NCBI GenBank assembly: GCA_041743505.1
Contig: JBGTMQ010000019.1
Span: forward strand, 70,147 to 134,146
Length of the DNA: 64,000 nucleotides
Direction: 5' to 3'
From: Candidatus Saccharimonadia bacterium
GTDB lineage: Bacteria; Patescibacteriota; Saccharimonadia; UBA4664
This document shows positions 35,635-56,968 of the stretch, one piece after another (the first letter of the stretch is position 1; every line of letters starts with the position of its first letter). The notes under the pieces were generated by a model. The model was given only the letters and a program-made list of their open reading frames with translations. It made no database searches and had not been told where the DNA came from. A program made the translations under genes and the position numbers.

Positions 35635-36170
35635 CTGGCCTGCCCCGGCTTAAAGCCGATTACTACGCTGGACTGGAACGAGCTGGCGTTCTGGGCAATA
35701 TTCTCCAGGTCAACGCCACTAATTCGCGGCGAGTTAGCTGCAGCGTCCCGAAAGGCCAGCATGGAATTGTAGCTGTCGCCCGTAACGGTGACACGTACGG
35801 GCTTCGTGTCATCGCCGGTTAGCGTAATACTAACGATGGCCACGCCCTGAGGTAGCACCTTAGCCAGGTCATCCAGCAATAGCGAAAAGCGCGTCTGAGT
35901 ACTTTGGATCGTCTTAATTGCGGTCAACCGGTCCGCCGCTTCCCGCGACTTTTTAACGTTCGGCGCATGACTGGCAATTGTTTGTTGCTTATCGGCAACG
36001 TCACGGGTTAGCGCATTAGCCTGCTGCCCCAAAAAGTACAGTGTGACGCCAAATATCGCCGTCAGCACAATCAGCACTAGTACCAACATGCGCAGATAAC
36101 CCAGAACCCGGCGGTTAAGCTTGGCATAATGCATCTGCTCCTTGATGTCTGGCGACAAGAGGTTAATCAT
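35631..36170 (-). CDS. pilN: type IV pilus assembly protein PilN-like
   Basis: MINLLSPDIKEQ...RRVLGYL N-terminus (PilM-binding peptide) then TM; ATGA overlap with pilM. Confidence 0.6.
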   Translation of the reverse strand: MINLLSPDIKEQMHYAKLNRRVLGYLRMLVLVLIVLTAIFGVTLYFLGQQANALTRDVADKQQTIASHAPNVKKSREAADRLTAIKTIQSTQTRFSLLLDDLAKVLPQGVAIVSITLTGDDTKPVRVTVTGDSYNSMLAFRDAAANSPRISGVDLENIAQNASSFQSSVVIGFKPGQAR

Positions 36171-37219
36171 AACGTGCCCTCCAGCCGCGCCAACCCGATA
36201 GCGGTCGTGTACATGGGCGCCTCCAGTGCCGAGACATTCTGGATGTTTTTGAGCAGAAGACCCTCCCACGGCGCAGCAATATTAACCGGAATGCCAAGCT
36301 GTTGGCTCATGTATTCAACCAGCCCGGGCATACCGGCGCTACCACCGGCCAAAATAACTGTTTGAATCGGCCGCTTATCCGCGCCACGGTCAGCGTAGAA
36401 TTTCATCACCCGCTTCATCTCACTACAAATAGTATCAAGCTGAGGCTTCATCGCCGCCGTAATCTTAACCTGGAGTCCGGACGGGCCAATGCCGAACTTA
36501 AACTTAATTTCATTCGCTTGCTCGTGTTTAATCTCCAGCTCGTTCATCAGCTGAACGGTCAAGTTGTCTCCACCCAGCGCGATGGTGTCTGTCAGGCGGG
36601 TAACCCGGTCGTGCACGGCCAGGTCGATCGAGTTTGAGCCCATATCTGCCACCAGAGTCACCTTGTCCATGGGCTTGGCCGACAACAAAGCCCTCGTCAC
36701 GGCCGACAGGCTTGACTCAATAAACACGACCTCCAGGTTCATCAAGGAAAATAGCTTGATATAGCTGTCTACGATCGCCCGCGGTGCCGCCACCATCAGC
36801 ACCTGGAGATGCTCGGTTTGACGCTCGATGATCTCATAATCAATATACAAATCCGGCAAAGGCACCGGCACATACTGCTCGGCCTCCAGTTTGACCGCCG
36901 CGTCAAGGTCGGCCGTTTCCATCGGCGGTAGTTGCAACACCCGGGTAAATGTCTTGGCCACCGGCAAGGCCGTAGCCACTCGGGTAGCGGTAATGTGACC
37001 GTAACTCATTTGGGTCAATAGCGGCTTGAGCGCCTTAGCAATTTCCTGTGGGTCCACAATAATGCCCTCAACAATGGCATCATCGGGGAACATTGCATAA
37101 CCATAACCCAACACTTGCATTCCCTTGCTGGTGGGGCGCAATTGAATCATTTTAGCAGTCCGGGTACCAAGGTCAAACCCGAACAGCGGTTCATATTTGT
37201 AAACGAGGCGAACTTGCAT
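36167..37219 (-). CDS. pilM: type IV pilus assembly ATPase-fold protein PilM
   Basis: actin-like ASKHA fold signature FGFDLGTRTAKMIQL...; 350 aa. Confidence 0.8.
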   Translation of the reverse strand: MQVRLVYKYEPLFGFDLGTRTAKMIQLRPTSKGMQVLGYGYAMFPDDAIVEGIIVDPQEIAKALKPLLTQMSYGHITATRVATALPVAKTFTRVLQLPPMETADLDAAVKLEAEQYVPVPLPDLYIDYEIIERQTEHLQVLMVAAPRAIVDSYIKLFSLMNLEVVFIESSLSAVTRALLSAKPMDKVTLVADMGSNSIDLAVHDRVTRLTDTIALGGDNLTVQLMNELEIKHEQANEIKFKFGIGPSGLQVKITAAMKPQLDTICSEMKRVMKFYADRGADKRPIQTVILAGGSAGMPGLVEYMSQQLGIPVNIAAPWEGLLLKNIQNVSALEAPMYTTAIGLARLEGTL

Positions 37220-37253
37220 CTATATAACCATAACAATATTCATTTTAGCACGC

Positions 37254-38672
37254 TTAGAGAGCCTCGTAGTATCGCACATCCCATGAACTGCTACCCCCCG
37301 AAGAGCTGCTGCCGAAGGTAATGTTACCAGAGTTACTCAAGGTTATTTTTTGTGCCATAATCGCGCCAATATTCCCACCATTGCTCAGCGTCAGCGCTGT
37401 CCAGCGGGCATAAAATGTACTGCTGGCGGCCAAACCTTGGTTATTAATACTAACGGTCTGCACATTCATGGAACTGTTAAGGTTAGAGCCTGTCACGGTG
37501 GAGCAGTCTGGCGAACATGAGGCTGTTGAGTAGAAGGTAATAAAATTGGCACCTATGCCATTTGTGTTGGTGGCTACAACCGATGAATTGCTCATCGTAA
37601 TACCGCCAGAGCCGTCGATCATGACGGTGGGTGTCGTGGTAACGCCAGCCGCCAGCCTCAACTGACTGCTATTAGATAGGCTCAGCGTTCCAGTAATCCA
37701 GGCGTTTCCGGACAACGTCACATTGCAACTGTTACTCAACGAGACGTTGCCGGTGATCTTCACGTTGGCCGGCCAAGTCTTAGCTTGACTACCACTGCAA
37801 GAGGCCGCCGAGCCGCTGATATTATGAACCGGCCCGGCAGGAACAGCGGCTTTTTGCCCGTCGCGGTCATAATCGGGCAAGGTCACGGCAGCGACGCCGC
37901 TGGCTTCTGTCAGCCCCGGATTAGACAAACCGGTAGTAGTAATTTGGCCGTTGGCTTTAGTGTCACCATAAATGCGGGCACTATTAGTTATAGTAATGGG
38001 ATTGTTTTGCGTCCCCATCGGGCAAATCTGCGGCCACGTAGCGTTTACAGGAACGGGGCAACGCTGGTTTGCTACTGATACGGCCACCGGCGAGGCAGCC
38101 GAACCAATCCGGGATGAGTTACTCATGGTGAGGAAACCTCCGACATAAACCGGGCCGGTGGTAATAGTCGCAGAGTTGCTCATAACCAGCCCGCCTGGCC
38201 CGGTCTGAATCACGTAGCCACCGGAGGGGGTGCCTTCAATGATGAGCCGGACTTTTTTGGTAGATTTAGGTGTCACGGATGAGGCCGGGGCATAAACCTT
38301 ACCCACGGCATAAACAATTTTTTCATTGGCAATAGTGCCGCTGGTAACACAGGTTTCGTATGTAGCCCGGCCCTGGGCATTGCTATAGAGCGTTACTGGG
38401 TTGGAACCACTGGAGGTTATCGGGCAAACAGTGTTGGTACCGGTGTAGGAGCCACTTTGGTTGATCTCATACATAAACCGGTCTGCGCCAGCTTCGGCCG
38501 CATAAACCGCATTGGTAGTATAGGTCGAACGTTTAGCGGCTCCCAGGTTATAGAGTCCCAGCGTCATCACTCCCATCAAAATCGTCAAGACAACGAAGCC
38601 TTGGACAAGCATAAGAATGAGCAGGAAGCCATTTTCTGAGCTACGTAATGGTAATTGCAATCGTTTCATCAT
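37254..38672 (-). CDS. large pilin-like protein (PilX/PilY1-position tip or minor pilin, lacks Glu5)
   Basis: N-terminal NGFLLILMLVQGFVVL hydrophobic helix resembling a class III signal without the conserved Glu. 472 aa, rich in G/S/T/N (beta-helix-like). Confidence 0.45.
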   Translation of the reverse strand: MMKRLQLPLRSSENGFLLILMLVQGFVVLTILMGVMTLGLYNLGAAKRSTYTTNAVYAAEAGADRFMYEINQSGSYTGTNTVCPITSSGSNPVTLYSNAQGRATYETCVTSGTIANEKIVYAVGKVYAPASSVTPKSTKKVRLIIEGTPSGGYVIQTGPGGLVMSNSATITTGPVYVGGFLTMSNSSRIGSAASPVAVSVANQRCPVPVNATWPQICPMGTQNNPITITNSARIYGDTKANGQITTTGLSNPGLTEASGVAAVTLPDYDRDGQKAAVPAGPVHNISGSAASCSGSQAKTWPANVKITGNVSLSNSCNVTLSGNAWITGTLSLSNSSQLRLAAGVTTTPTVMIDGSGGITMSNSSVVATNTNGIGANFITFYSTASCSPDCSTVTGSNLNSSMNVQTVSINNQGLAASSTFYARWTALTLSNGGNIGAIMAQKITLSNSGNITFGSSSSGGSSSWDVRYYEAL

Positions 38673-39355
38673 TTATTCCTCAATGCAGCAGTTGTTGTAT
38701 AAGAACTCGTGTACGTACGGGACCCGATCGTCTTGCTCTCGGTTACGGTGAAGCTAATGGCTTCAGTGCCGGCCGGCGAGGTTACAGTAGCGCCGTTAGC
38801 ATCTAGGTAAGAGGTAGTCAAATTAGCCACATCCTCAACAATGACCGAATCGGCCGGACAGCTGCCGTTAGCGATGGCTGGCGGGCAAGTAGTGACTGCC
38901 CGGTTGCTAGGAGCCGAGGTATTAGCTATTACGCGCTTATACAACCGGCGGGTAGTATTATCAAGGTAAAAGATAATGTCGTCTGTGTAGAGGTTGTTAT
39001 GCAAGCCATCAATATAGATAAGGTTATTTGACGTGTCACGTGATGGCACGGACACAATGAGCGTAGTGCCGGAGCCGGCCGCACCTGACCAACTGTAAAG
39101 GTTGCCTGGTGCGCCTGGAGCGTTGTTATCAGCCAGAACATTATTTGCCTGAACGGAGCGGCCCTCACGAGCAATACGGGCCACTGCCTCCACCGCTGCT
39201 TTGGTGTTTACTAGCACCTCGGTCTGGGTGTAGTCCTGCTGGCTAGAACGTATGCTATCAGTCACAAAGTTACCGGCTACAAGAAGTAAAACACTAGTCA
39301 AGCTAATGGCCATTAGCACTTCCAATAAGCTAAAACCCCGTTCATCGGGACTCAT
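38669..39355 (-). CDS. type IV minor pilin (prepilin-type N-terminal cleavage/methylation domain)
   Basis: ERGFSLLEVLMAISL class III signal peptide. Confidence 0.7.
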   Translation of the reverse strand: MSPDERGFSLLEVLMAISLTSVLLLVAGNFVTDSIRSSQQDYTQTEVLVNTKAAVEAVARIAREGRSVQANNVLADNNAPGAPGNLYSWSGAAGSGTTLIVSVPSRDTSNNLIYIDGLHNNLYTDDIIFYLDNTTRRLYKRVIANTSAPSNRAVTTCPPAIANGSCPADSVIVEDVANLTTSYLDANGATVTSPAGTEAISFTVTESKTIGSRTYTSSYTTTAALRNK

Positions 39356-39753
39356 TTATTAATCCCCCGGCTTGCCACTAGCGTAGTCACACTAGTGGTC
39401 TTAAGGCCGCCTTTGCCGGTAAAGGTGATCGTCAGGTCAATCTGCTTTAGCCCGTTAGGCTGAAGTTCGGTAATGGTGGCAGTAGCCGACCGCGGCGCTA
39501 GGAGCGTGGGGTACGGCGTAAGAATTCCCGCTATATTCTGGGTGCCAACCACCAGATTGTTATATGGCGTATTGCGGTATTGCTCAATCTGTTGTTGTGC
39601 CAACTGGTTAACGATAACCATATTGCTGGAAAAACGGTTCAAATCCCGCACTTCAATAAAAAACTGAAGCATAGCCATAATCATAACGCTCATTACAGTT
39701 ATGGTTACAATAAGCTCAAGGAGCGAAAACCCCCGCTCATCAGCATATTTCAT
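39352..39753 (-). CDS. type IV minor pilin (prepilin-type N-terminal domain)
   Basis: ERGFSLLELIVTITVMSV class III signal peptide. Confidence 0.7.
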   Translation of the reverse strand: MKYADERGFSLLELIVTITVMSVMIMAMLQFFIEVRDLNRFSSNMVIVNQLAQQQIEQYRNTPYNNLVVGTQNIAGILTPYPTLLAPRSATATITELQPNGLKQIDLTITFTGKGGLKTTSVTTLVASRGINK

Positions 39754-39782
39754 ATTGATATTATACTGCTTACGCTCATCAA

Positions 39783-39813
39783 AAACGACCCCGGTAGAGA
39801 GGTCGTTTTCAGA
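39783..39813 (-). terminator. rho-independent terminator after pilA
   Basis: aaacgacc-ccggtagagag-ggtcgttt hairpin with T-run on the minus strand. Confidence 0.6.
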
Positions 39814-39828
39814 TTGGCTCAGGAAGTT

Positions 39829-40263
39829 CTAGTTGTTGTTAATCAGCTGGAAGTTACGGCTGGAGCCAGTACATGTTGCATCGTTGTTGGTCCCAGTGCT
39901 CGAGTCACCGCCATTCTCAAGACAAGCCTTGAGGGTGTAGGTGGTGTTGGTACCAGCCGGGGTGTAGGTGTAAACCAGCACACCAGTGTTCTTGGGGTCG
40001 GTCGGCACGTTCGTTAAGATTGGCGGGTTACCAGCCGTCAGGTCAGTGAGCGCCGCCGGATAAACATTGTTGCTAACAAAGTACTCTTCCAGTCCCTTCT
40101 GGATGGCCTTAAGATCGGTTTTACGCTGAGTGTCGCGGGCCTTCTTGGGCGCGGACGTAATGTTGGGGATAATCAACAAGGCTAGGATGCCAATGATCAC
40201 AATAACGATCAAAAGCTCCAGGAGCGTGAAACCGCCTTGTTTTTTAATGATGTTTTTAAGCAC
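39829..40263 (-). CDS. pilA: type IV major pilin PilA
   Basis: KQGGFTLLELLIVIVIIGILA prepilin signal; KARDTQRKTDLKAIQKGLEEYF; C-terminal Cys pair. Confidence 0.8.
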   Translation of the reverse strand: MLKNIIKKQGGFTLLELLIVIVIIGILALLIIPNITSAPKKARDTQRKTDLKAIQKGLEEYFVSNNVYPAALTDLTAGNPPILTNVPTDPKNTGVLVYTYTPAGTNTTYTLKACLENGGDSSTGTNNDATCTGSSRNFQLINNN

Positions 40264-40361
40264 GAGTGCTCACCTCCTTAATATTTGTGGAACTAGAATA
40301 GAGATAATAAGCTCTATATAAATTCACTATAAAGTGCTTACGTTTGAGTGTCAAATGAGAT

Positions 40362-40402
40362 CAAAAAAAGCCCCCGCCCCGGCCAAAAAACCGGAGCGAG
40401 GG
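40362..40402 (-). terminator. rho-independent terminator
   Basis: GC-rich imperfect 12-bp hairpin (cccccgccccgg/ccggagcgaggg) followed by T7 on the minus strand. Confidence 0.6.
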
Positions 40403-40414
40403 TAACGCACAACA

Positions 40415-40981
40415 CTAGCTATGTTCTGGCAAGCCCGTTTCGCGTCTTGATGCCGCCGAGCGACGAAGTGAGGCCAATTCCTCAGCCAAATTGTCTGCGC
40501 TGGACTTGTGGTCATCCGCGCGCGCGGCCAAACCGCGCTTCTCCAGCTCCTGCAATTGGGGCTGCTGGGCGGCCCACTTCTTGGCCTGTACCTCAGCCAC
40601 ACCCACCACCGCGATGAGGGCAGCGGTCAGGATAAAGCGGCTGGGCTTTCCCGTCACCCGGTTATGAACCAGCTTGACGAGGGGAGCACGCACAAGTGCA
40701 GAAGCTAGCTCAATACTGCCACGAACAGGCTTAGCCGCAACACCGGCGGTCATGGTAGCCAGCACACCCACCTTCAGATTCTTTGCCAGGCGCGGCCGCT
40801 TGGGTTTCAACCCAGGCTCGGTCTTTGCCATAACAACGCCGGTTATGACGGCGCCGACAACAGCTGGGAGGTACTCGAGCGGTGGTTCCCGGAGCAACTC
40901 CGGGTTCTCAACCACCGCGGCAATCCGCTGCCGGGCACTCTCGGCCAGGGCCTGCAGGTGCTGCGTGTAATTCGGCATCAA
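40415..40981 (-). CDS. hypothetical membrane-associated protein
   Basis: 188-aa ORF with hydrophobic stretches and its own terminator. Confidence 0.4.
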   Translation of the reverse strand: MMPNYTQHLQALAESARQRIAAVVENPELLREPPLEYLPAVVGAVITGVVMAKTEPGLKPKRPRLAKNLKVGVLATMTAGVAAKPVRGSIELASALVRAPLVKLVHNRVTGKPSRFILTAALIAVVGVAEVQAKKWAAQQPQLQELEKRGLAARADDHKSSADNLAEELASLRRSAASRRETGLPEHS

Positions 40982-41054
40982 TACTCCTAGCGAACGAAGA
41001 GCGGATCTGCTCCGAATGGGGCAGATTTACACTTTATAGCACAAAAACAAAGTT

Positions 41055-41093
41055 AAAACAAGACTCCGCCCCGGCCAAAAGCCGGAGCGGAGA
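41055..41093 (-). terminator. rho-independent terminator (same hairpin family as 40362..40402)
   Basis: ctccgccccggc-caaaa-gccggagcggag hairpin; weak T-run on the minus strand. Confidence 0.5.
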
Positions 41094-41114
41094 CAAAACC
41101 GGTGACAGACAAAA

Positions 41115-41603
41115 CTACTGTCGGTATACGGGGTCTTCCACGAATGTTGGTAGTTGCTTCAATTCGTGTCGGTAGGCAGCAATAGCCGCCTCGTGTTCCG
41201 ATGGCAATTTTCCTCCCAGTCTCGGGTGAAATTTGATGGCGAGAAGCCAACGGTGATTGCGCAGCCAAGCCATGCGGGGCTCATAGTGTCTTTCGACACT
41301 CAACTCGGGCTTGGTTAAATGCTTGTAGAGCAGGGTTATAACAACGCCACTAACGATGGTAACCAAGAACAACACAGTGCCGGCGTTGATGAATTTTCGT
41401 GCCTCAGGACTCCAGTCGAACGGCAGTGGCCATACCAGCAGGAGCGTATAAGCGCCGACACCGGCGCCGGATGTTGAGAGAGCCAGGACAGGCATAACCC
41501 AAACTGGTATTCGGCAGTATCGCCACGTTACAAGCCAGATTACAACGACGACCAACCCCAGTACGACAACTGCTGTTGTGGGGGGAAAAATATGGAGGGT
41601 CAT
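41115..41603 (-). CDS. 3-TM membrane protein with cytoplasmic tail
   Basis: RBS AGGGAG 5 nt before ATG (MTLHIFPP); 162 aa. Confidence 0.45.
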   Translation of the reverse strand: MTLHIFPPTTAVVVLGLVVVVIWLVTWRYCRIPVWVMPVLALSTSGAGVGAYTLLLVWPLPFDWSPEARKFINAGTVLFLVTIVSGVVITLLYKHLTKPELSVERHYEPRMAWLRNHRWLLAIKFHPRLGGKLPSEHEAAIAAYRHELKQLPTFVEDPVYRQ

Positions 41604-41732
41604 GTTGCTCCCTGTGTCAGGAAGGTACTGGAGGGGAAACGAACTAACAACTAGATTAATATACTCCTCAAGCCAAAATACGCAAGAGTTTGTCCACAAT
41701 GTTAATCAAAACAAGAATACCCCCAGATATGA

Positions 41733-41770
41733 GGACGCCCGCCCCGGTCATTGACCGGGGCGGGCGTAAG
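41733..41770 (-). terminator. strong GC hairpin terminator
   Basis: cgcccgccccggtca/tgaccggggcgggcg, about a 15-bp perfect stem. Confidence 0.55.
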
Positions 41771-41783
41771 CTGTGAAGAGTGG

Positions 41784-41909
41784 TTATGCAGCCTTGTCGT
41801 AAGGCGCTTCGTCCTCTTCACGGACCAACACGGCCCGGCGGCGCAGAAGCCCGGCTGCTACCAGCCCCACTATTGCCACCGCAATCAAAACAATCCAGCC
41901 GCGATTCAC
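41784..41909 (-). CDS. 41-aa single-TM peptide (GTG start), paralog B
   Basis: GGAGG-N6-GTG; VNRGWIVLIAVAIVGLVAAGLLRRRAVLVREEDEAPYDKAA. Confidence 0.4.
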   Translation of the reverse strand: MNRGWIVLIAVAIVGLVAAGLLRRRAVLVREEDEAPYDKAA

Positions 41910-41940
41910 AATTCACCTCCTTTACTGACTCGATGGAGGC

Positions 41941-42054
41941 CTATTTATCGGTGTTCCGGTTAGCCCGGCTCCGCGCGCGAAGCTTCGCGAACAACCCCAG
42001 CGCCGCCGCCACCAGACCGATGCGTTTCCACGACTGGCCTGACCACTTGGGCAT
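41941..42054 (-). CDS. 37-aa single-TM peptide, paralog A
   Basis: GAGGGGG-N6-ATG; MPKWSGQSWKRIGLVAAALGLFAKLRARSRANRNTDK. Shares the GLVAAxLGL core and an identical RBS-spacer (GGTGAAT) with paralog B. Confidence 0.4.
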   Translation of the reverse strand: MPKWSGQSWKRIGLVAAALGLFAKLRARSRANRNTDK

Positions 42055-42147
42055 GATTCACCCCCTCGAACATGTCGGATGTGCCCTTCGGACTATTAGG
42101 TGATACCACAGGGGTAAAATAATTGCTAGCTTAAGTAGTTAGGGCAA

Positions 42148-43380
42148 TTAAACAGAGTTACTGATCTCTGAGATCGGACCAAACACCGAGATAACGATAA
42201 AACCAACCATGCCTCCGAGCACAATAATAAGAATCGGTTCAATGATAGAAGTGATGCCGGAAATTACCGTGTCAACCTCACGCTCATAAAAGCCGGCCAG
42301 TTTGAGCAAAATTTCATCAATTTTGCCCGTTTCCTCACCCACCGACAGCATTTGGCCGACGATAGCGGGGAAGTGTGGGGAGGCCCGGATTTGCTCGCTC
42401 ATGGGCCGGCCGTTCTTAACTTTTTGGGCCACGATAGCTAATTCATCGCGGTAGACCGTGCTGCCTAGAGCACTTTGAGTAGCCTTCAAGGCATCGAGCA
42501 CCGAGATGCCCGAGGCCATCAGCGAACCAAAAGTACGGGCAAACCGCGCTATATTAACCTTAACAAGGATCGGGCCAATAATAGGGGCTTTGAGCAGCAG
42601 CCGGTCAAAAATACGCTTACCGCTATCGGTCCGGTGCCAGCGCACAAAAGCAATGATTGCTACAATCGCGCCACCAATAAGGTAATACCAGCCATGCACC
42701 AGGAAATCGGACATTGCTAACATAATTTTTGTGTAGATAGGCAGGTCGGCGCCCGCATCCTCAAAAATGCTGGACAATTTCGGCACGATCACAGTCATTA
42801 GGAAAAAGAATGCGCCAAAAGTCGCTATTGTAATAACGGCCGGGTAGATCATGGCGCTCTTGACCTTGCTCACGATCTCGGCGTCTTTTTCCTGCTGGGT
42901 GGCCAGGCGGTCAAGCACGTCATCCAGAATACCGCCGGTTTCACCGGCCCGCACCATGTTGACATAGATATTATTGAATACGTCCGGATGAGCGGCCAGC
43001 GCGTTGGCTAAGGTAGCACCGCCTTCAACCTGTTTGGATACATCAGCCACCACCAGCTTAAGTTTCTTCGACTCGGATTGTTCCGCCAGGATGCTCAGGG
43101 CCTGCGCGATCGGCACACCGGCATTAATCATCGTGGCAAACTGACGGCTCATGATAACCTTATCTTGTAATTTAACTCCGCCGCCCAGGTGTATTTTCTC
43201 CAGAAATCCATCGAGACCGCCAATACCAGCCGGCTTGGCCTTTGCCTCCTCCTTGAGCAGGATCGGCGTCAGACCTTTATCGGCCAGGCTGGCTGCAGCT
43301 GCCGCCCGGTCAGCCGCAAATAACGTACCCTTCTGGAACACCCCGGACTTGTCACGCGCACTGTAACTAAATGATGCCAT
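42148..43380 (-). CDS. pilC: type IV pilus inner-membrane platform protein PilC (GspF family)
   Basis: two GspF repeats and three TM segments; 410 aa. Confidence 0.9.
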   Translation of the reverse strand: MASFSYSARDKSGVFQKGTLFAADRAAAAASLADKGLTPILLKEEAKAKPAGIGGLDGFLEKIHLGGGVKLQDKVIMSRQFATMINAGVPIAQALSILAEQSESKKLKLVVADVSKQVEGGATLANALAAHPDVFNNIYVNMVRAGETGGILDDVLDRLATQQEKDAEIVSKVKSAMIYPAVITIATFGAFFFLMTVIVPKLSSIFEDAGADLPIYTKIMLAMSDFLVHGWYYLIGGAIVAIIAFVRWHRTDSGKRIFDRLLLKAPIIGPILVKVNIARFARTFGSLMASGISVLDALKATQSALGSTVYRDELAIVAQKVKNGRPMSEQIRASPHFPAIVGQMLSVGEETGKIDEILLKLAGFYEREVDTVISGITSIIEPILIIVLGGMVGFIVISVFGPISEISNSV

Positions 43381-43383
43381 TGA

Positions 43384-45435
43384 TTACTCCCGGGTTACTC
43401 TTAAGATCTCTTCGATGGTCGTCCGGCCCATCAAAGCTTTTACAAAACCGTCCTGTTGCATGGTTAACATACCGCCGCGGACGGCCTGTAGCTGAATGTC
43501 ATCCGAGGTTGCGTGACCCACAATCATCTTCTGGATCGAATCACTCACTTCCAGGACCTCGTAAATACCCATGCGCCCCTGGTACCCAACCCCGCCACAA
43601 GCTTCACACCCGGGACCGGCTTTATACAGAATAAATTGACCGGCCTTGAGATGGGCTGGATCCGGAGCCGGCCCGGCCTGCAGGGGCGCGGGAGGCGGGG
43701 CTGCCGCGCCGACAACCAGCGCAGCAGCAGGGGCAGTCACGGGTGCCGGCGGTTGCGGTGCTGCCGGGGAGCCGGCCTTTTTGGCGTCCTCGACCGACCG
43801 GTTGATAATATTCGGGTCGGCCGCGATCTTATCCAGAATCGAATTCGCCGTATCAATATCATGCGTCGGCTCAATAATCCGGTTCTTCTTGCGCTCGTTC
43901 GGCTCTACCCGCACTGGCTTTGGCGCCTCTTGCGGCACCGGTGAAGGTACAGCCGGCTTCTCGGCCGGGATCGCTCCGCCGCTCTTCAGTTCATTGAAAT
44001 GCTTTAGCGCAATATCAAGCTGGAAATCCCGCTTGATATTACTAAGCTCTGTGCCCTCGGGCACGTACGACTGGCGGCAAACCGGGCACAGCCGCCGCAC
44101 CAGCCGCTGGCCAATCACTGTGTTAACCGTACTCGCAATCAGAAACGGCTCAATGCCCATATCCAACAACCGGGGTAGGGTAGTGGCGGCATTATTAGTG
44201 TGCAGCGTGCTCAAAACCACGTGCCCGGTCAAAGCCGCCTGCACAGCCAAATCCGCCGTCTCACCGTCACGAATCTCACCCACCATGATGATGTTGGGGT
44301 CTTGCCGCAACAGCGCCCGCAAACCGGCCGCGAAACTCATGCCGGCCTTAACGTTGGTTTGCGTCTGGTTGACACCGGTCACGCGGTATTCCACCGGGTC
44401 CTCAATCGTCGAAATATTCACGCCCGCCGTGTTGAGCATTGACAATATCGAATACAACGTAGTGGACTTGCCCGAGCCGGTCGGACCCGTTACCAGCGTC
44501 ATACCATGCGGCTTGTGCAGGTTGCGGCCGATAGTATCCAGCGCATTACCGGCAAAGCCCAGCTCTTCCAATGTCAGCGCCCGGGCCGATTCGTCCAAAA
44601 TACGCATGACGACCTTCTCGCCGTCCATGATCGGCAAAGTCGATACCCGCAGCGCCACTTGCTTCTGCCCGATACTAAACTTAAACCGCCCGTCCTGTGG
44701 TACCCGGTGCTCATCAATTTTCAAATTCGACAAAATCTTAATACGCGACACTACCGCCGCCAATATTGGCTTTGGCAAAGTCATGGTTTCGCGCAGTACA
44801 CCATCGATGCGGTAACGCACCTGCACAATATTTTCCCGCGGCTCAATATGAATGTCGGATGCCCGGCTCTTGATGGCGTATTCCAATATGACGTTTACCG
44901 TTTTGGCGATTGGTGCGTCTTCGGCTATATCCTTTGCCGACACCTTTTCCTCGGCCGCCGCGTCCGCGCTGCTGTCCTTGATGGCCTTTGTTATCTCGCT
45001 CGATATGTTACCCTTGTATTGGTCAATAGCACCCAACACATCGCTTGGCACCGCCAAATAAGACTTAAGTTTCCCGCCGACTTGCTTGCTAATAAAGTCT
45101 GCCGCCTGGAAGTCCTCAGGATCGGCCATAGCCAGCTGATAGTGGTCCTCCTCCACACCAAATAACACCGCCTGATACTTCCGCGCGATCCGCTCCGGGA
45201 TCTTTAGCAGCACCTCGCGCGGAATCTTAACGTCACCCAATTCTACGAACGGCACCTTAATACTGTCCGCAAACAGTTTGGCCAGGTCCTTCTCGTTAAT
45301 GAATTTATTTTTGAGGACGGCAGCTTGCAGCGTTTCGGTGGATCCTTGCTTGGGCGTAGCATCATTAAGAACGGTCTCTTTTACGCGACCGGAGTCAATT
45401 AACAGCTTTCTGAGCTCACCATCAGATATGTGCAT
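43384..45435 (-). CDS. pilB: type IV pilus assembly ATPase PilB (GspE family) with low-complexity insertion
   Basis: Walker A GPTGSGKSTTL, Asp box, Walker B, His box, tetracysteine CPVC...CEAC. 683 aa. Confidence 0.9.
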   Translation of the reverse strand: MHISDGELRKLLIDSGRVKETVLNDATPKQGSTETLQAAVLKNKFINEKDLAKLFADSIKVPFVELGDVKIPREVLLKIPERIARKYQAVLFGVEEDHYQLAMADPEDFQAADFISKQVGGKLKSYLAVPSDVLGAIDQYKGNISSEITKAIKDSSADAAAEEKVSAKDIAEDAPIAKTVNVILEYAIKSRASDIHIEPRENIVQVRYRIDGVLRETMTLPKPILAAVVSRIKILSNLKIDEHRVPQDGRFKFSIGQKQVALRVSTLPIMDGEKVVMRILDESARALTLEELGFAGNALDTIGRNLHKPHGMTLVTGPTGSGKSTTLYSILSMLNTAGVNISTIEDPVEYRVTGVNQTQTNVKAGMSFAAGLRALLRQDPNIIMVGEIRDGETADLAVQAALTGHVVLSTLHTNNAATTLPRLLDMGIEPFLIASTVNTVIGQRLVRRLCPVCRQSYVPEGTELSNIKRDFQLDIALKHFNELKSGGAIPAEKPAVPSPVPQEAPKPVRVEPNERKKNRIIEPTHDIDTANSILDKIAADPNIINRSVEDAKKAGSPAAPQPPAPVTAPAAALVVGAAAPPPAPLQAGPAPDPAHLKAGQFILYKAGPGCEACGGVGYQGRMGIYEVLEVSDSIQKMIVGHATSDDIQLQAVRGGMLTMQQDGFVKALMGRTTIEEILRVTRE

Positions 45436-45462
45436 AGTTAGAATTATTGTAGCATAAGCAGC

Positions 45463-45744
45463 TTAAACGCGTTCATGCAATAGCCGGGCTACGCGGCTGG
45501 CCCGTACAGATTCGCTCTTGATAATACGCCGCCCCCGTTGCGTCAGTTTATATCGTTGATTATCTCTCGTTAGCTCGATAAGGCCATCCCGCACAAGGCG
45601 TTGCAGCGCATAATAAAACGTTCTCTCGCCTATTATTAAGGTACTTTGCGAATCCTCCGCCACTTGAGTCGCAATCTCCGGTCGGGTCGCTTCGCCCGCT
45701 GCAAGTGCCAGCAAAATATGAAGGGTGACAGGGGTTGGTGGCAT
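45463..45744 (-). CDS. PadR-like winged-helix transcriptional regulator
   Basis: 93 aa; LHILLALAAGEATRPEIATQV...YYALQRLVRDGLIE pattern. Confidence 0.5.
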   Translation of the reverse strand: MPPTPVTLHILLALAAGEATRPEIATQVAEDSQSTLIIGERTFYYALQRLVRDGLIELTRDNQRYKLTQRGRRIIKSESVRASRVARLLHERV

Positions 45745-54359: not shown

Positions 54360-54382
54360 ACCGATCGTATCAGTTTGTTACT

Positions 54383-54416
54383 AAAAAGAACCCACCTTAT
54401 GAACGGGTTCTTTTAG
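54383..54416 (+). terminator. rho-independent terminator after hup
   Basis: aagaaccc-accttatgaac-gggttctt hairpin followed by TTTT. Confidence 0.7.
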
Positions 54417-54590
54417 TTGGACAGCTGCCCGGGTTAGCTATTCTGTCGCTATTAAGCCACCCTTGGAAGAAGATGAAGTGCAGTAATGCTCTGCCCGTCA
54501 TTAATTTCACCGCGCTCAATCATTGACTCAACCTTCGGCAATGATATAAATTTTGCGTCACTAATAGTGGCTCCTGCAATTACAGACCTT

Positions 54591-55214
54591 CTAATGGCTG
54601 GTTACGGATAACACTGCTTTTATATCATTATCATGTTTACTAACCCGGATCCATGGGTACCCATACTTTTTAGTCTCAGTCTCAAGACACCGGCCAAACA
54701 GCCGCACCCACTCCACCTCTTTCTCTTTCACGCTATCCAGATAGCTCTCCGCCTTGCCCCAAAGACCACGTTCATAAACAACCCTCCGCAACCGGTCTTC
54801 GTCATGGTCCACCAGAAATACCGGCTTAATATGACCGTTATTTCCAAAATCCCTCGCAATCAAACGAGGTAGGAGGTGAACACCCTCGACAATAAAACCC
54901 TCCGGCCATATCGGCCATTCATAGTCGTTCTCAATGAACGCCTTAATTCCAAGCCATACTGCTTCGTTATGTTTCAGTACCTTCTCAACAATCTCCTCAG
55001 CCGTAAATTCGGTCAGAAATCGCTCAGCAGTATAACCCTGAGGCTTAAATATGTCAGGAAAATCGTCCCTACGAGCCGTAACCTGCATCATATCGCCAAT
55101 TTGGTCCGTCGATATCCACGGCAGCCCCAATTGCTTTGCCAGCGCTCTTGCCACAGTAGTTTTACCAGTCGTCGGCGAGCCACCGATGAGGATGATAGTT
55201 TTGTCCTGCTTCAT
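54591..55214 (-). CDS. P-loop NTPase/small-molecule kinase (AAA_33/NadR-kinase-like)
   Basis: Walker A IGGSPTTGKTT at the N-terminus; 207 aa; 4-nt overlap with the upstream SemiSWEET gene. Confidence 0.5.
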   Translation of the reverse strand: MKQDKTIILIGGSPTTGKTTVARALAKQLGLPWISTDQIGDMMQVTARRDDFPDIFKPQGYTAERFLTEFTAEEIVEKVLKHNEAVWLGIKAFIENDYEWPIWPEGFIVEGVHLLPRLIARDFGNNGHIKPVFLVDHDEDRLRRVVYERGLWGKAESYLDSVKEKEVEWVRLFGRCLETETKKYGYPWIRVSKHDNDIKAVLSVTSH

Positions 55215-55462
55215 CGGAACCGGTTCTGAGCCTTAATCACCAAAATGATTAATCCAAGCCCAAAAACAACCGCATTAGTCACCCAAATTGCCGGTAACCC
55301 GCCCACCAAGCCATAAACCACCCACAGAAGCGCCGACACGTTCAACAACATAAGCGTCAAAAGCGATAAATCCCGGGTTTTCCGGGTAATTACCGTTTTG
55401 TATGCTTGTGGAACATAAGTCGAAAGGGTAAGAACCCCGGCAATAACGCCGACTACTTCCAT
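55211..55462 (-). CDS. SemiSWEET / PQ-loop 3-TM transporter
   Basis: 83 aa, three TM helices, PQ motif (STYVPQAYK) in TM1. Confidence 0.6.
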   Translation of the reverse strand: MEVVGVIAGVLTLSTYVPQAYKTVITRKTRDLSLLTLMLLNVSALLWVVYGLVGGLPAIWVTNAVVFGLGLIILVIKAQNRFR

Positions 55463-55664
55463 CGCTGACCGCCGTGACCGGTCAAATTAGCCACCAAACA
55501 ACCGGGCTATAGCATCAAACAAGCTATTGAACAGATTTTGCAATGCCGTCAAAAAAGCCTGCAACAAGCTAAAAACAGCGTTAACAAAATCCATGATCGG
55601 CCTCAGAATCGAGTCTACTACATCCATATCTCTATTATAGCTTCTCTCCCGCCTGCTTACACGC

Positions 55665-56363
55665 CTACTTTTGCTTCATAATGTCATCGGACTTTAGCCC
55701 GGTAAGTTTCTCGATGCGCAGTAAAAGATATGAAATAACCACCACGATCCCCACCATCAGCGGCAACGCGATTGCCGGCAAGCTTACCAGCCTCAGGTGT
55801 GCATATTCCTGGTTGAAAGCGTCAGAGCCAGTTGGGCTTTGGATAATAATGTGAGTCAAAATATAGCTCGCCACCGCAATAGCCGCAAAAATTCCGCATA
55901 ACGCATAAGCTGCGTTGGTAGCCGTTTGCTCAACTTTCTTCAACGTTCCTTTCTCCCTGGCGGCTTCGCTCACGACGTTCATGTCAAAAATTCTTTTCAG
56001 CAGCGCATTAACCACCGGGCGTTTAATCAGTTGCCCAACCAAAATCACCACCACAATAAACACGTACGGCACACTCCGCCGGATAGCCAGCCAATTCTCG
56101 TCCAGATTAAACAAACCAATCGCGCCCGTCACCAGCAAGCCGCCAATCACCGCCAGCGATACCATACTAACTTTCCGGCGGCGCCATATGCTGTATATCT
56201 CAAACCCAACCGGAAACGCCAATGCCAGCAAAAACGCCTTAGTGGCACCGAGCTCGGACTCTGCGCTAAAACGGGTCAGAATAAATATCGGAATAATAAA
56301 ATTAACAAACAGCTGCAACAGAAAAGATGGTTTCCCGGAATTCGCTCGAGTATCTTTCGTCAT
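55665..56363 (-). CDS. polytopic membrane protein of unknown function
   Basis: 232 aa, 5-6 TM; 4-nt overlap with the upstream LigT-like gene. Confidence 0.45.
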   Translation of the reverse strand: MTKDTRANSGKPSFLLQLFVNFIIPIFILTRFSAESELGATKAFLLALAFPVGFEIYSIWRRRKVSMVSLAVIGGLLVTGAIGLFNLDENWLAIRRSVPYVFIVVVILVGQLIKRPVVNALLKRIFDMNVVSEAAREKGTLKKVEQTATNAAYALCGIFAAIAVASYILTHIIIQSPTGSDAFNQEYAHLRLVSLPAIALPLMVGIVVVISYLLLRIEKLTGLKSDDIMKQK

Positions 56364-56968
56364 TTTTTCTCCAAGGGGTAAGTTCGAATTATCTCATACT
56401 GCAACAGTGGCTTTATGACATTCTTGATGAGTTTAAATTCTGTCACCTCTTCTTCAAATAATACGCTATGGCGCCTCACAACCTCTTGCACTTTCTCAAG
56501 CTCTGCTTCAGCCTCGTATCGCGCTATGGAGCTATGAACAATATCCGGTGGCGCGTTTGTCTCGGCTGGCAAGGGAAACCCCTCGAGCAGTTGCGTCCGG
56601 ATGGCATTAAAAACGCCCCCATCCTGCCCACGCACGATAATCGCCTGGGGGCTGGCTTGAACAGTATCAAACACAACTTTAATGGGCCTATGTATTGATA
56701 AAACGCCGGCTGGTACGTTCTCGTAGTCCGCTTTGTGCAGCCTATAAAGCGATTCTTTATCCTGGCTATACGGCTTGGTTTGGATTATTTCGAGGAGCGT
56801 AATATGCAACGATTCCGGCGGCATTGTCCACAACATACCCGGTAATTCTCTGGATAATTCATTAAGTAGGCTTACGATCCGCCTTTGTCCCGTCTGGCTA
56901 ATAAAAGCCACAATAGCGTAACCAGTAATTTCCGTTCCGGTATCAGTGGCAGGCAGGGTTTTTGTCAT
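56360..56968 (-). CDS. 2H-phosphoesterase (LigT / 2'-5' RNA ligase-like)
   Basis: two HxT/Sx motifs (LHITLLE and VHSSIAR) about 90 aa apart. Confidence 0.6.
   Translation of the reverse strand: MTKTLPATDTGTEITGYAIVAFISQTGQRRIVSLLNELSRELPGMLWTMPPESLHITLLEIIQTKPYSQDKESLYRLHKADYENVPAGVLSIHRPIKVVFDTVQASPQAIIVRGQDGGVFNAIRTQLLEGFPLPAETNAPPDIVHSSIARYEAEAELEKVQEVVRRHSVLFEEEVTEFKLIKNVIKPLLQYEIIRTYPLEKK

Follow-up and report, generated by a model that had tools for sequence, protein, structure and literature searches.

In Escherichia coli the genes pnuC and nadR are unlinked, so the lack of a conserved adjacency does not by itself disprove a functional pair of transporter and kinase. Co-translation implied by a 4-nt overlap often accompanies shared function. 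In the fungal and plant tRNA ligase Trl1, kinase and CPDase healing domains are found together. Among sugar transporters of the SemiSWEET type, Asn64 of LbSemiSWEET contacts glucose (PMC5742349), and among COG2074 kinases, 2-phosphoglycerate kinase (2PGK) and mevalonate-3-phosphate 5-kinase (M3P5K) are mutually related (PMC11052028, PMC8975820).

Here we compare with these systems a four-gene cluster of the window, that is, the whole stretch of 64,000 nucleotides that was analysed. A sequence-only reading had suggested, as a hypothesis, a transport-and-trap logic for its SemiSWEET and kinase; the genes are identified correctly there and their coupling in translation holds, whereas the kinase is not NadR-like and the adjacency of SemiSWEET and kinase genes does not recur. 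Our verdict is that the four genes form an ordinary lineage-specific accessory cluster. In the reading that we prefer, with a probability of about 0.5, they are a co-directional set of two coupled pairs without a conserved pathway, in which each gene would do the job of its family. The genome that holds them is probably patescibacterial and Saccharimonadia-like, as type IV pilus proteins with 34–47% identity to those of a Saccharibacteria MAG suggest.

Two overlapping gene pairs on the minus strand

All four minus-strand ORFs are present as the sequence-only reading had placed them, and the locus comprises the following features.

56360–56968, minus strand: 2H phosphoesterase, LigT/ThpR-like, 202 aa (ORF; PF13563; AF2 model)
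55665–56363, minus strand: VC0807-family (IspA/YciB-like) integral membrane protein, 232 aa (ORF; NF041646)
55487–55627, minus strand: possible small ORF, 46 aa (gene call, translation, hydropathy)
55211–55462, minus strand: SemiSWEET, 83 aa, 3 TM (ORF; Pfam PQ-loop and MtN3_slv)
54591–55214, minus strand: stand-alone P-loop kinase, 207 aa (ORF; PRK04220; AF2 model)
54418–55214, unstranded: presence/absence segment of ~797 bp, kinase ORF plus 173 nt downstream (blastn and MAFFT against the relatives L085/L086)
54381–54417, unstranded: bidirectional intrinsic-terminator-like hairpin (RNA folding; alignment to a relative)

The 2H gene opens the cluster and shares 4 nt at its stop with the start of the membrane-protein gene (56360–56363), while the kinase start overlaps the SemiSWEET stop at 55211–55214. 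Both of these overlaps, which had been described as 4 nt long, read ATGA, and the arrangement is one of two translationally coupled pairs, 2H with the VC0807-like gene and SemiSWEET with the kinase gene. By a crude gene call, 4- or 1-nt overlaps occur in 3 of the 46 same-strand neighbour pairs of the window, and two of these three lie in this cluster; their scarcity elsewhere in the window indicates that the compactness of the cluster is local and not genome-wide.

A gap of 202 nt (55463–55664) lies between the SemiSWEET and membrane-protein genes and contains the possible 46-aa ORF, of which a 35-aa version starting at 55594 is called in a Logan assembly (L001). Its predicted product is hydrophobic or amphipathic by hydropathy. 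The ORF is not conserved in the closest relative (L085/L086, Logan runs ERR14334695/ERR14334694), in which another gene precedes that for the SemiSWEET, and its standing as a real gene is uncertain. Promoter or terminator signals inside the cluster, which might divide it, were no more numerous than in shuffled sequence; with no such signal above chance, the cluster may form one operon or two bicistronic units, both being compatible with the sequence. A riboswitch or leader RNA in the gap or flanks was rejected, as Rfam gave no match in the window at gathering thresholds and, under relaxed settings, only one chance-level match (E 7.5).

The hairpin at 54381–54417 consists of an A-tract, a stem and a U-tract and is shared between the kinase transcript and HU, whose gene is convergent. 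The hairpin folds at –14.4 and –13.6 kcal/mol in the window (z = –3.5 and –3.0) and is conserved in L085 with a stronger stem (–20.8 kcal/mol). Composition was set aside as a sign of horizontal transfer: the GC3 of the four genes lies 0.7–1.7 SD below the window mean, which is not diagnostic because the entire 52–64 kb stretch is similarly low.

A 2H phosphoesterase and two membrane proteins

The first product carries both of the H-x-T/S motifs that had been read from the sequence, H55-I-T57 and H145-S-S147, and across 20 homologues neither H55-x-T57 nor H145-x-S147 varies. A bilobed 2H fold is predicted for it, supported by a PF13563 score of 28.9 bits (cut-off 27) and by an AF2 model (pLDDT 95.7) whose top Foldseek matches are 1iuh, 1vdx, 5h7e and entries beginning with 5ld, at probability 1.00. 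Superposed on LigT/ThpR structures including E. coli LigT, the model gives TMt values of 0.65–0.77 (normalised to target length). No relative with a solved structure is detectable by sequence, and the subfamily is small (20 clusters). The enzyme would most likely act as its family does, by hydrolysing 2',3'-cyclic phosphate or similar termini of RNA or nucleotides.

The second product shows 5–6 hydrophobic segments by hydropathy, in agreement with the 5–6-TM protein described earlier. It reaches 95.4 bits against NCBIfam NF041646 (VC0807 family; cut-off 65), with residues 14–209 aligned to positions 2–187 of the 189-position profile, and 28.0 against Pfam IspA, slightly under the cut-off of 28.7. 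The pairing of its gene with the 2H gene did not recur: at 14 other loci of 2H homologues, none had a VC0807-like, SemiSWEET or kinase gene as neighbour. A metagenome scan for 2H relatives yielded 10 loci, mostly short.

The third product is a canonical SemiSWEET, and the earlier description of an 83-aa PQ-loop protein proved accurate: both Pfam models are matched over their cut-offs (PQ-loop 32.9 bits, cut-off 22; MtN3_slv 24.4 bits, cut-off 23.7), hydrophobic segments at residues 3–17, 35–53 and 58–76 make three helices, and the PQ motif P18-Q19 in TM1 is invariant in the SemiSWEET clade. NCBIfam SemiSWEET_2 is matched at E 2e-16, but the score of 59.8 lies under the cut-off of 80. The protein aligns to the solved structures 9kax, 4rng, 4qnc, 4x5m and 4qnd at E~1e-8, and its pocket residues W47 and N63 correspond to W48 and N64 of LbSemiSWEET (4qnc). 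The presence of this canonical sugar-binding Trp/Asn pair points to a sugar, and not to nicotinamide riboside, as the predicted substrate. The protein would presumably homodimerise into a passive sugar uniporter.

This pocket and the ATGA overlap that couples SemiSWEET and kinase favour an import-and-trap reading, in which, in this lineage, the SemiSWEET would admit a host-derived sugar or sugar-like compound down its gradient and the co-translated kinase would phosphorylate it and thereby keep it in the cell, the 2H and VC0807-like proteins being bystanders. We consider this possible, if somewhat unlikely, and the further evidence on it comes from the kinase and from the recurrence of the pair.

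The kinase, its family and its neighbours

The 207-aa product carries the N-terminal Walker A motif noted by the sequence-only reading (GGSPTTGKT), and its AF2 model (pLDDT 92.9) predicts a P-loop kinase fold that matches generic NMP/shikimate-kinase-like structures only (TM 0.45–0.6). A NadR/Nrk-like identity was not borne out: the match to Pfam AAA_28, cited as NadR-type (29.7, cut-off 27), is confined to the P-loop at residues 8–51, and NadR/Nrk entries are absent from the PDB profile matches and from the top 50 fold matches. NadR-like, adenylate-, shikimate- and gluconate-kinase identities were all rejected, their matches being P-loop-limited or sub-threshold and the fold matches generic; the housekeeping kinase that had been named as the counter-case, of adenylate or shikimate type, was not recognisable here. 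A defence-system role was also discarded, as PADLOC models match the kinase P-loop only briefly and the other three proteins not at all.

Full-length matches are limited to models of 2PGK and M3P5K. The kinase matches PRK04220 at E 1.5e-20, with residues 3–190 aligned to positions 90–273 of the 306-position profile, and PRK12339 at E 7e-8; equivalog cut-offs are missed (73.8 versus 343 for 2PGK, 32.4 versus 250 for M3P5K). A match over the full domain with scores under the equivalog cut-offs makes the kinase a relative of the COG2074 enzymes, not an orthologue. Sequence comparison places it in a large orphan family without a characterised member, related to 2PGK and M3P5K. At E ≤ 1e-30 this family counts 100 representatives (50%-identity clusters), a number that rises to 728 at E ≤ 1e-10; nearly all are stand-alone proteins of ~200 aa, mainly from CPR/Patescibacteria and DPANN archaea. 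The window kinase is 44–49% identical to DPANN archaeal proteins and 56–61% to CPR ones, and the distribution is patchy.

In the family alignment (A1), D37, E110-G111 and R149 are invariant. An Asp after strand 2, as Asp37 is, is a feature of hydroxyl-phosphorylating P-loop kinases such as shikimate and gluconate kinases, and it speaks for an import-and-trap role; the Gly that replaces Arg40 in the window kinase, at a position at least 90% conserved in the family, speaks against it. So do the characterised relatives, whose substrates are 2-phosphoglycerate and mevalonate-3-phosphate and neither free sugars nor nucleosides (PMC12136491, PMC5177888, PMC11052028). The enzyme would use ATP and an Asp37 base to phosphorylate a hydroxyl of a small metabolite, probably one already phosphorylated or nucleotide-derived, and would do a job of its own in the many CPR and DPANN genomes that have it without a SemiSWEET.

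The adjacency of SemiSWEET and kinase genes had been expected to recur, and it did not: a SemiSWEET neighboured the kinase at 0 of 83 other orthologous-kinase loci (80 species-representative genome loci and the three closest metagenomic homologues). Nor was a SemiSWEET–kinase fusion found among the best 150 of 2,585 family matches, among which the one long protein, P0207, is a fusion with Peptidase_S51. Both results weigh against import and trap. A clade-specific SemiSWEET HMM at maximum sensitivity found its sole copy within 6 kb of a kinase in L006. Small ORFs beside the closest kinase homologues (L084, 85 aa; L082, 114 aa) were considered as hidden SemiSWEETs and rejected, having no PQ-loop match; one is MazG-like.

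In the closest relative, the HU, SemiSWEET and YmdB products are 99%, 82% and 78% identical to those of the window. The gene order there is SemiSWEET, terminator and HU; the kinase gene and 173 nt are missing from a locus that is otherwise collinear in blastn and MAFFT alignments. This relative retains the SemiSWEET without the kinase, a further point against import and trap. On this comparison, the kinase gene would most likely be a recently gained or lost accessory gene, sited exactly at the SemiSWEET stop codon, a position that implies co-expression of the two genes here. The patchy distribution of the kinase, together with its place in L072, where its gene and that of a serine recombinase belong to one chain of overlapping genes, fits a mobile accessory gene.

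The SemiSWEET side was sampled in 7 contexts only, among them L006, which was chosen because it carries the kinase, and this small sample limits what it can say in favour of import and trap; further contexts sought in viral contigs held no relatives. In L091, the gene ahead of a SemiSWEET of the window clade (61% identical) encodes a distant kinase of COG2074 type, which hhalign places in the superfamily of the window kinase with a probability of 97.9% and whose only NCBIfam match is the mevalonate-3-phosphate 5-kinase model; the chance of such a neighbour is ~5%, from the frequency of paralogues in ~990 genes. In the Saccharimonadia genome L006, a divergent SemiSWEET lies between two unrelated small-molecule kinases, an AAA_18 kinase and an APH-fold kinase. 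In L106, the SemiSWEET gene comes after one for a sugar-phosphate aldolase of the kinase/aldolase type. All three contexts favour import and trap, L091 as an independent juxtaposition. Together with the 4-nt SemiSWEET–kinase overlap and the rarity of overlaps in the window, they run counter to the reading that we prefer.

The window and L091 may also reflect a wider pattern, in which SemiSWEETs and COG2074-type kinases would have come together several times independently in Saccharimonadia-like episymbionts and would import and phosphorylate a host sugar or sugar-like metabolite. We hold this to be unlikely; if true, it would provide a first physiological substrate for the large orphan CPR/DPANN kinase family.

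The genes around the kinase family bear on two further readings. NUDIX genes are the commonest immediate neighbours (8 of 148), and 8 of the 13 that lie within 6 kb of a kinase adjoin it directly. PF13563 2H proteins account for 2 of the 148: in the Nanoarchaeota locus L072 the 2H gene and the start of the kinase gene share 4 nt, and the Saccharibacteria locus L020 has the two genes in convergent orientation. His_Phos_1 phosphatases neighbour the kinase in 3 loci, and between the family profile and the N-terminal part of T4 polynucleotide kinase there is a weak match (E 0.011). The nucleoside or NAD-derivative substrate guessed at earlier fits loosely with the NUDIX (8) and 2H (2) neighbours, and the sugar pocket of the SemiSWEET argues against its nicotinamide-riboside version. 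These neighbours and the polynucleotide-kinase match would also suit a functional pair of kinase and 2H enzyme on nucleotide or RNA-end substrates, the two membrane proteins being unrelated to it; by analogy with the healing domains of Trl1, the pair might open a 2',3'-cyclic phosphate and phosphorylate a hydroxyl, or handle ADP-ribose-derived compounds. We regard such a pair as quite improbable. In the window, two or three genes intervene between the two, which belong to separate overlap pairs; the 2H proteins of L072 and L020 come from different 2H subfamilies, and relatives of the window 2H never neighbour a kinase (14 other loci). Moreover, NUDIX, GNAT, APH and phosphatase genes are common accessory genes that may merely share variable regions with the kinase (L017, L072), and the full-length similarity of the kinase is to small-molecule kinases.

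GNAT (4) and APH (2) genes also occur among the immediate neighbours, and L017 has a kinase-APH-kinase-GNAT string. Several family members have precomputed chloramphenicol phosphotransferase (CPT, PF07931) matches, the window kinase matches CPT at E 3.7e-4, and the kinase is polymorphic in presence and absence. Such observations would agree with a kinase that modifies xenobiotics or antibiotics as chloramphenicol phosphotransferase does, in a detoxification or tolerance island whose membrane proteins handle the compound. This is very improbable in our judgement, given that the CPT match covers the P-loop region only and is under the cut-off, that the kinase family is highly conserved between CPR and DPANN (40–60% identity), to a degree uncommon among resistance enzymes, and that SemiSWEETs are not known to export drugs.

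For the lineage-specific accessory cluster that we prefer, the main value is a negative one: a tight overlap by itself should not be taken as a pathway. If the SemiSWEET–kinase pairing were functional, it would represent a minimal uptake-and-trap device in host-dependent organisms. The kinase family is sizeable and well conserved in CPR bacteria and DPANN archaea, in NUDIX-rich surroundings, and assigning it a substrate would close a gap in what is mapped of the metabolism of these reduced symbionts.

Comparison with described systems

By analogy, the SemiSWEET and kinase resemble PnuC–NadR in combining a small facilitator with a P-loop kinase that could trap an imported compound. The differences lie in both partners. 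The window kinase matches AAA_28 in the P-loop only, with no NadR/Nrk among its profile or top fold matches; the transporter is a 3-TM SemiSWEET and not a PnuC, as Pfam and NCBIfam match it to nothing but PQ-loop, MtN3 and SemiSWEET; and the window system is without an NMN adenylyltransferase domain or a NAD-related regulator. Compared with the Trl1 module of kinase and 2H CPDase, the window likewise encodes a P-loop kinase and a 2H protein together, and in L072 the 2H gene overlaps the kinase gene, an analogy of arrangement. By contrast, there is no ligase domain here, the window genes are not adjacent, and the kinase is closer to small-molecule than to polynucleotide kinases.

The 2H protein shares the two H-x-T/S motifs and the fold with LigT/ThpR-type enzymes (E. 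coli LigT, Thermus thermophilus TT0787, Deinococcus radiodurans CPDase), whereas its sequence identity to them is only 13–18%. The SemiSWEET agrees with the solved proteins of Leptospira biflexa (4qnc), Thermodesulfovibrio (4rng), E. coli (4x5m) and Vibrio (4qnd) in length, three TM helices, PQ motif and Trp/Asn pocket; it differs in its small divergent clade, of which 8 clusters were recovered, and in its SemiSWEET_2 score under the cut-off. For the kinase, the nearest described enzymes are those of COG2074, 2PGK of Methanothermus fervidus in the cyclic-2,3-diphosphoglycerate pathway and M3P5K of the Thermoplasma-type mevalonate pathway. Genes for cDPG synthetase or for the mevalonate pathway (mevalonate 3-kinase, bisphosphate decarboxylase) were not found among the ORFs flanking the cluster or among the family-wide neighbours. 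The window kinase leaves the first ~89 positions of the 2PGK model unaligned, and its family is centred on CPR and DPANN, not on methanogens or Thermoplasmatales, whereas the match to COG2074 extends over the whole domain and JGI labels many members of the family 2-phosphoglycerate kinase.

Gene layout and flanking signals

The four minus-strand genes proposed by the sequence-only reading are present exactly where it placed them, and its 4-nt overlaps at two junctions correspond to ATGA at 55211–55214 and 56360–56363.

Features of the cluster and its flanks (window coordinates)
54381–54417, both strands: bidirectional terminator-like hairpin (A-tract, stem, U-tract), about 170 nt downstream of the kinase gene
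54591–55214, minus: ORF, P-loop kinase, 207 aa
55211–55462, minus: ORF, SemiSWEET, 83 aa
55487–55627, minus: possible small ORF, 46 aa, hydrophobic or amphipathic (MDVVDSILRPIMDFVNAVFSLLQAFLTALQNLFNSLFDAIARLFGG), in the 202-nt gap between the VC0807-like and SemiSWEET genes
55665–56363, minus: ORF, VC0807-family membrane protein, 232 aa
56360–56968, minus: ORF, 2H protein, 202 aa

Of the 46 same-strand pairs of adjacent genes that a crude gene call finds in the window, 3 show –4/–1 overlaps. Two of these lie within the cluster, indicating that the coupling is a local feature rather than general genome compaction. The gap separating the two gene pairs matches no Rfam family, and its promoter/terminator signal does not exceed shuffled expectation; the small ORF within it is called as a 35-aa version in the Logan assembly and is absent from the close relative. 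The hairpin, common to the kinase gene and the convergent HU gene, folds well on either strand (z –3.5 and –3.0) and is kept in the relative (contig L085, 430–462), where two G–U pairs are replaced by G–C pairs (–14.4 kcal/mol in the window versus –20.8 kcal/mol in L085). Rfam provides nothing pointing to a riboswitch, nothing at the cluster points to a defence system, and base composition carries no diagnostic signal of foreign origin.

Elsewhere in the window, tandem paralogous plus-strand ORFs of ~111 aa (780–1118 and 1164–1499) share similar hydrophobic N-termini (…AIFALAEAFAL… and …AIFTLAEAFAL…). A minus-strand ORF run (36167–45744) is read from sequence as putative type IV pilus genes (PilB/PilC/PilM-like); its members at 36167–37219, 42148–43380 and 43384–45435 are 25–47% identical to ORFs of a Saccharibacteria MAG locus (L007), which is the chief pointer to the taxonomic affinity of the window.

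An orphan kinase family

The interest of the cluster rests mainly on the orphan family of its kinase. The expected N-terminal Walker A motif is present, and the AF2 model, at pLDDT 92.9, confidently shows the fold of a P-loop kinase, with generic matches to UMP/CMP, adenylate, shikimate, PFK-2 and dephospho-CoA kinases (TM 0.45–0.6); no solved structure close by sequence was found. The Pfam AAA_28 (NadR-type) match covers residues 8–51 only. Full-length matches are limited to two NCBIfam models, 2-phosphoglycerate kinase (E 1.5e-20, residues 3–190) and, more weakly, mevalonate-3-phosphate 5-kinase, both scoring far under the equivalog cut-offs. These two enzymes are related members of COG2074 that act on phosphorylated hydroxy-acids (PMC12136491, PMC5177888, PMC11052028, PMC8975820).

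The homologues are stand-alone proteins of ~200 aa, with identities of 56–61% in CPR/Patescibacteria and 44–49% in Woese-, Pace- and Nanoarchaeota, and are also scattered in proteobacterial MAGs and Dongia. An exhaustive profile search counted 728 cluster representatives at E ≤ 1e-10, of which 100 reach E ≤ 1e-30, and almost all have a single domain; in the sole long member among the best 150 (P0207, 411 aa), a Peptidase_S51 domain is fused to the N-terminal side of the kinase domain. Residues D37 (LPWISTDxIR motif), E110–G111, R149, K163, E166 and several tryptophans are invariant in the family. At position 40 the window kinase has Gly in place of the Arg found in at least 90% of family members (LPWISTDQIR motif), and it has a three-residue insertion, EWP (~100–102), ahead of the conserved W-x-x-GF-I-EG strand; possibly it is a relaxed copy or one of altered specificity.

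Neighbourhoods of the kinase and the SemiSWEET

The sequence-only reading had proposed import by the SemiSWEET and trapping by the kinase. In 80 loci from species-representative genomes, each with flanks of 6 kb, and at the three closest metagenomic homologues, neither phmmer nor an unfiltered clade-specific SemiSWEET HMM revealed a SemiSWEET adjoining the kinase. Pfam annotation found no PQ-loop/MtN3 protein among 148 immediate kinase neighbours, and all-against-all clustering of ±4 genes disclosed no conserved neighbourhood, the largest cluster, found at 7 loci, being a class I aminoacyl-tRNA synthetase whose Pfam matches indicate the methionyl type. The closest SemiSWEET relative (82% aa identity, contigs L085/L086) lies in a locus collinear with the window that retains the terminator hairpin, HU (99% identical) and YmdB (78%). 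It lacks ~797 bp comprising the kinase ORF and a 173-nt tail, with a ~31-nt linker instead, starting just past the SemiSWEET stop codon; upstream of the SemiSWEET lies a SpoIIAA-like gene, not a VC0807-like one. In none of 14 other sampled 2H contexts does a VC0807-like gene, a SemiSWEET or a kinase adjoin the 2H gene, and in contig L105 the 2H gene adjoins a NUDIX–ComEC–YebC–RuvC–RuvA block that lies 27–47 kb away in the window. The changing neighbours of all four genes indicate that the cluster is lineage-specific. The best account, to which we assign a probability of about one half, sees two coupled pairs in a lineage-specific cluster and no pathway common to them; the kinase would be an accessory gene gained or lost recently and docked at the SemiSWEET stop codon.

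Three observations keep import and trapping from being dismissed, although in narrowed form we consider it unlikely. In contig L091, a P-loop protein of 157 aa (IIGGAPKTGKT...FIMEGAQIAPHLL) is encoded ahead of, and on the same strand as, a SemiSWEET 61% identical to that of the window. The protein is a distant member of the kinase superfamily (hhalign probability 97.9%, E 5e-13; 41.1 bits to the family HMM for the whole ORF, best domain 33.8 bits at positions 6–135), and its sole NCBIfam match is the mevalonate-3-phosphate 5-kinase model. At 23% identity it is not an orthologue, and would thus represent an independent juxtaposition; the chance of such a paralogue among the dozen neighbours of other SemiSWEET contexts is estimated at roughly 5%, from the paralogue frequency in ~990 sampled genes. 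The Saccharimonadia chromosome L006 encodes a divergent PQ-loop protein with a kinase on each side: an AAA_18/shikimate-kinase-like P-loop kinase across a 38-nt gap and an APH-fold kinase across a 19-nt gap. A window-type kinase lies 2.2 kb beyond this trio; the locus is not an unbiased sample, because it was chosen for carrying the kinase. In L106, another SemiSWEET-clade member follows an aldolase like that of the bifunctional 5-dehydro-2-deoxygluconokinase/aldolase enzyme. By contrast, the SemiSWEETs of L085/L086, L087 and L088–L090 have no kinase neighbour.

Kinase neighbourhoods in other genomes
L006 2434–7317, same-strand run: PEMT/ICMT-like methyltransferase, AAA_18 kinase, PQ-loop/SemiSWEET-like protein, APH-fold kinase, two unknown genes, window-type kinase, His_Phos_1 phosphatase
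L064 6598–9531 (Pacearchaeota): LeuRS with inserted NUDIX, directly downstream of a kinase-family gene
L073 3720–5744 (Woesearchaeota): ProRS with inserted NUDIX, directly downstream of a kinase-family gene

Across the family, NUDIX is the commonest immediate neighbour (8/148), spanning CPR, DPANN and one alphaproteobacterial MAG; 8 of the 13 NUDIX within 6 kb are directly adjacent, and two are the domains inserted in LeuRS and ProRS. GNAT (4), His_Phos_1 (3), APH (2) and PF13563 2H proteins (2) follow. In Nanoarchaeota (L072, 4495–7456), a 2H gene, the kinase and a serine recombinase are joined by 4-nt overlaps and followed by a PD-(D/E)XK nuclease, suggesting that mobile DNA can carry the kinase. 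A kinase–2H pairing acting on nucleotide or RNA ends is improbable, and a detoxification reading of the cluster still more so. In Peribacteria (L017, 4420–7227), a divergent kinase paralogue, an APH-fold kinase (4-nt overlap), the kinase and a GNAT acetyltransferase stand in a row. The neighbour pattern fits either a nucleotide-derivative role or small accessory enzymes that simply share variable and at times mobile regions.

Comparison with known systems

Taken singly, the four genes are new members of families already known; taken together, they are not an established "system". The membrane protein, with the anticipated 5–6 hydrophobic segments, belongs to the VC0807 family (IspA/YciB-like; 95.4 against a cut-off of 65). 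The 2H protein passes PF13563 (28.9 bits, cut-off 27), and its two H-x-T/S-x motifs, as first noted, are H55-x-T57 and H145-x-S147, invariant in 20 homologues. Its AF2 model (pLDDT 95.7) resembles the LigT/ThpR-type enzymes T. thermophilus TT0787, P. horikoshii 1vdx, D. radiodurans CPDase and E. coli LigT (TM-score normalised to target length, 0.65–0.77). The SemiSWEET is canonical, with three helices, a PQ motif and Pfam scores above threshold, and matches five solved bacterial SemiSWEET structures at E~1e-8. Its W47 and N63 align with W48 and N64 of the Leptospira protein, in which Asn64 hydrogen-bonds glucose (PMC5742349); this correspondence argues for a sugar rather than a PnuC-type substrate.
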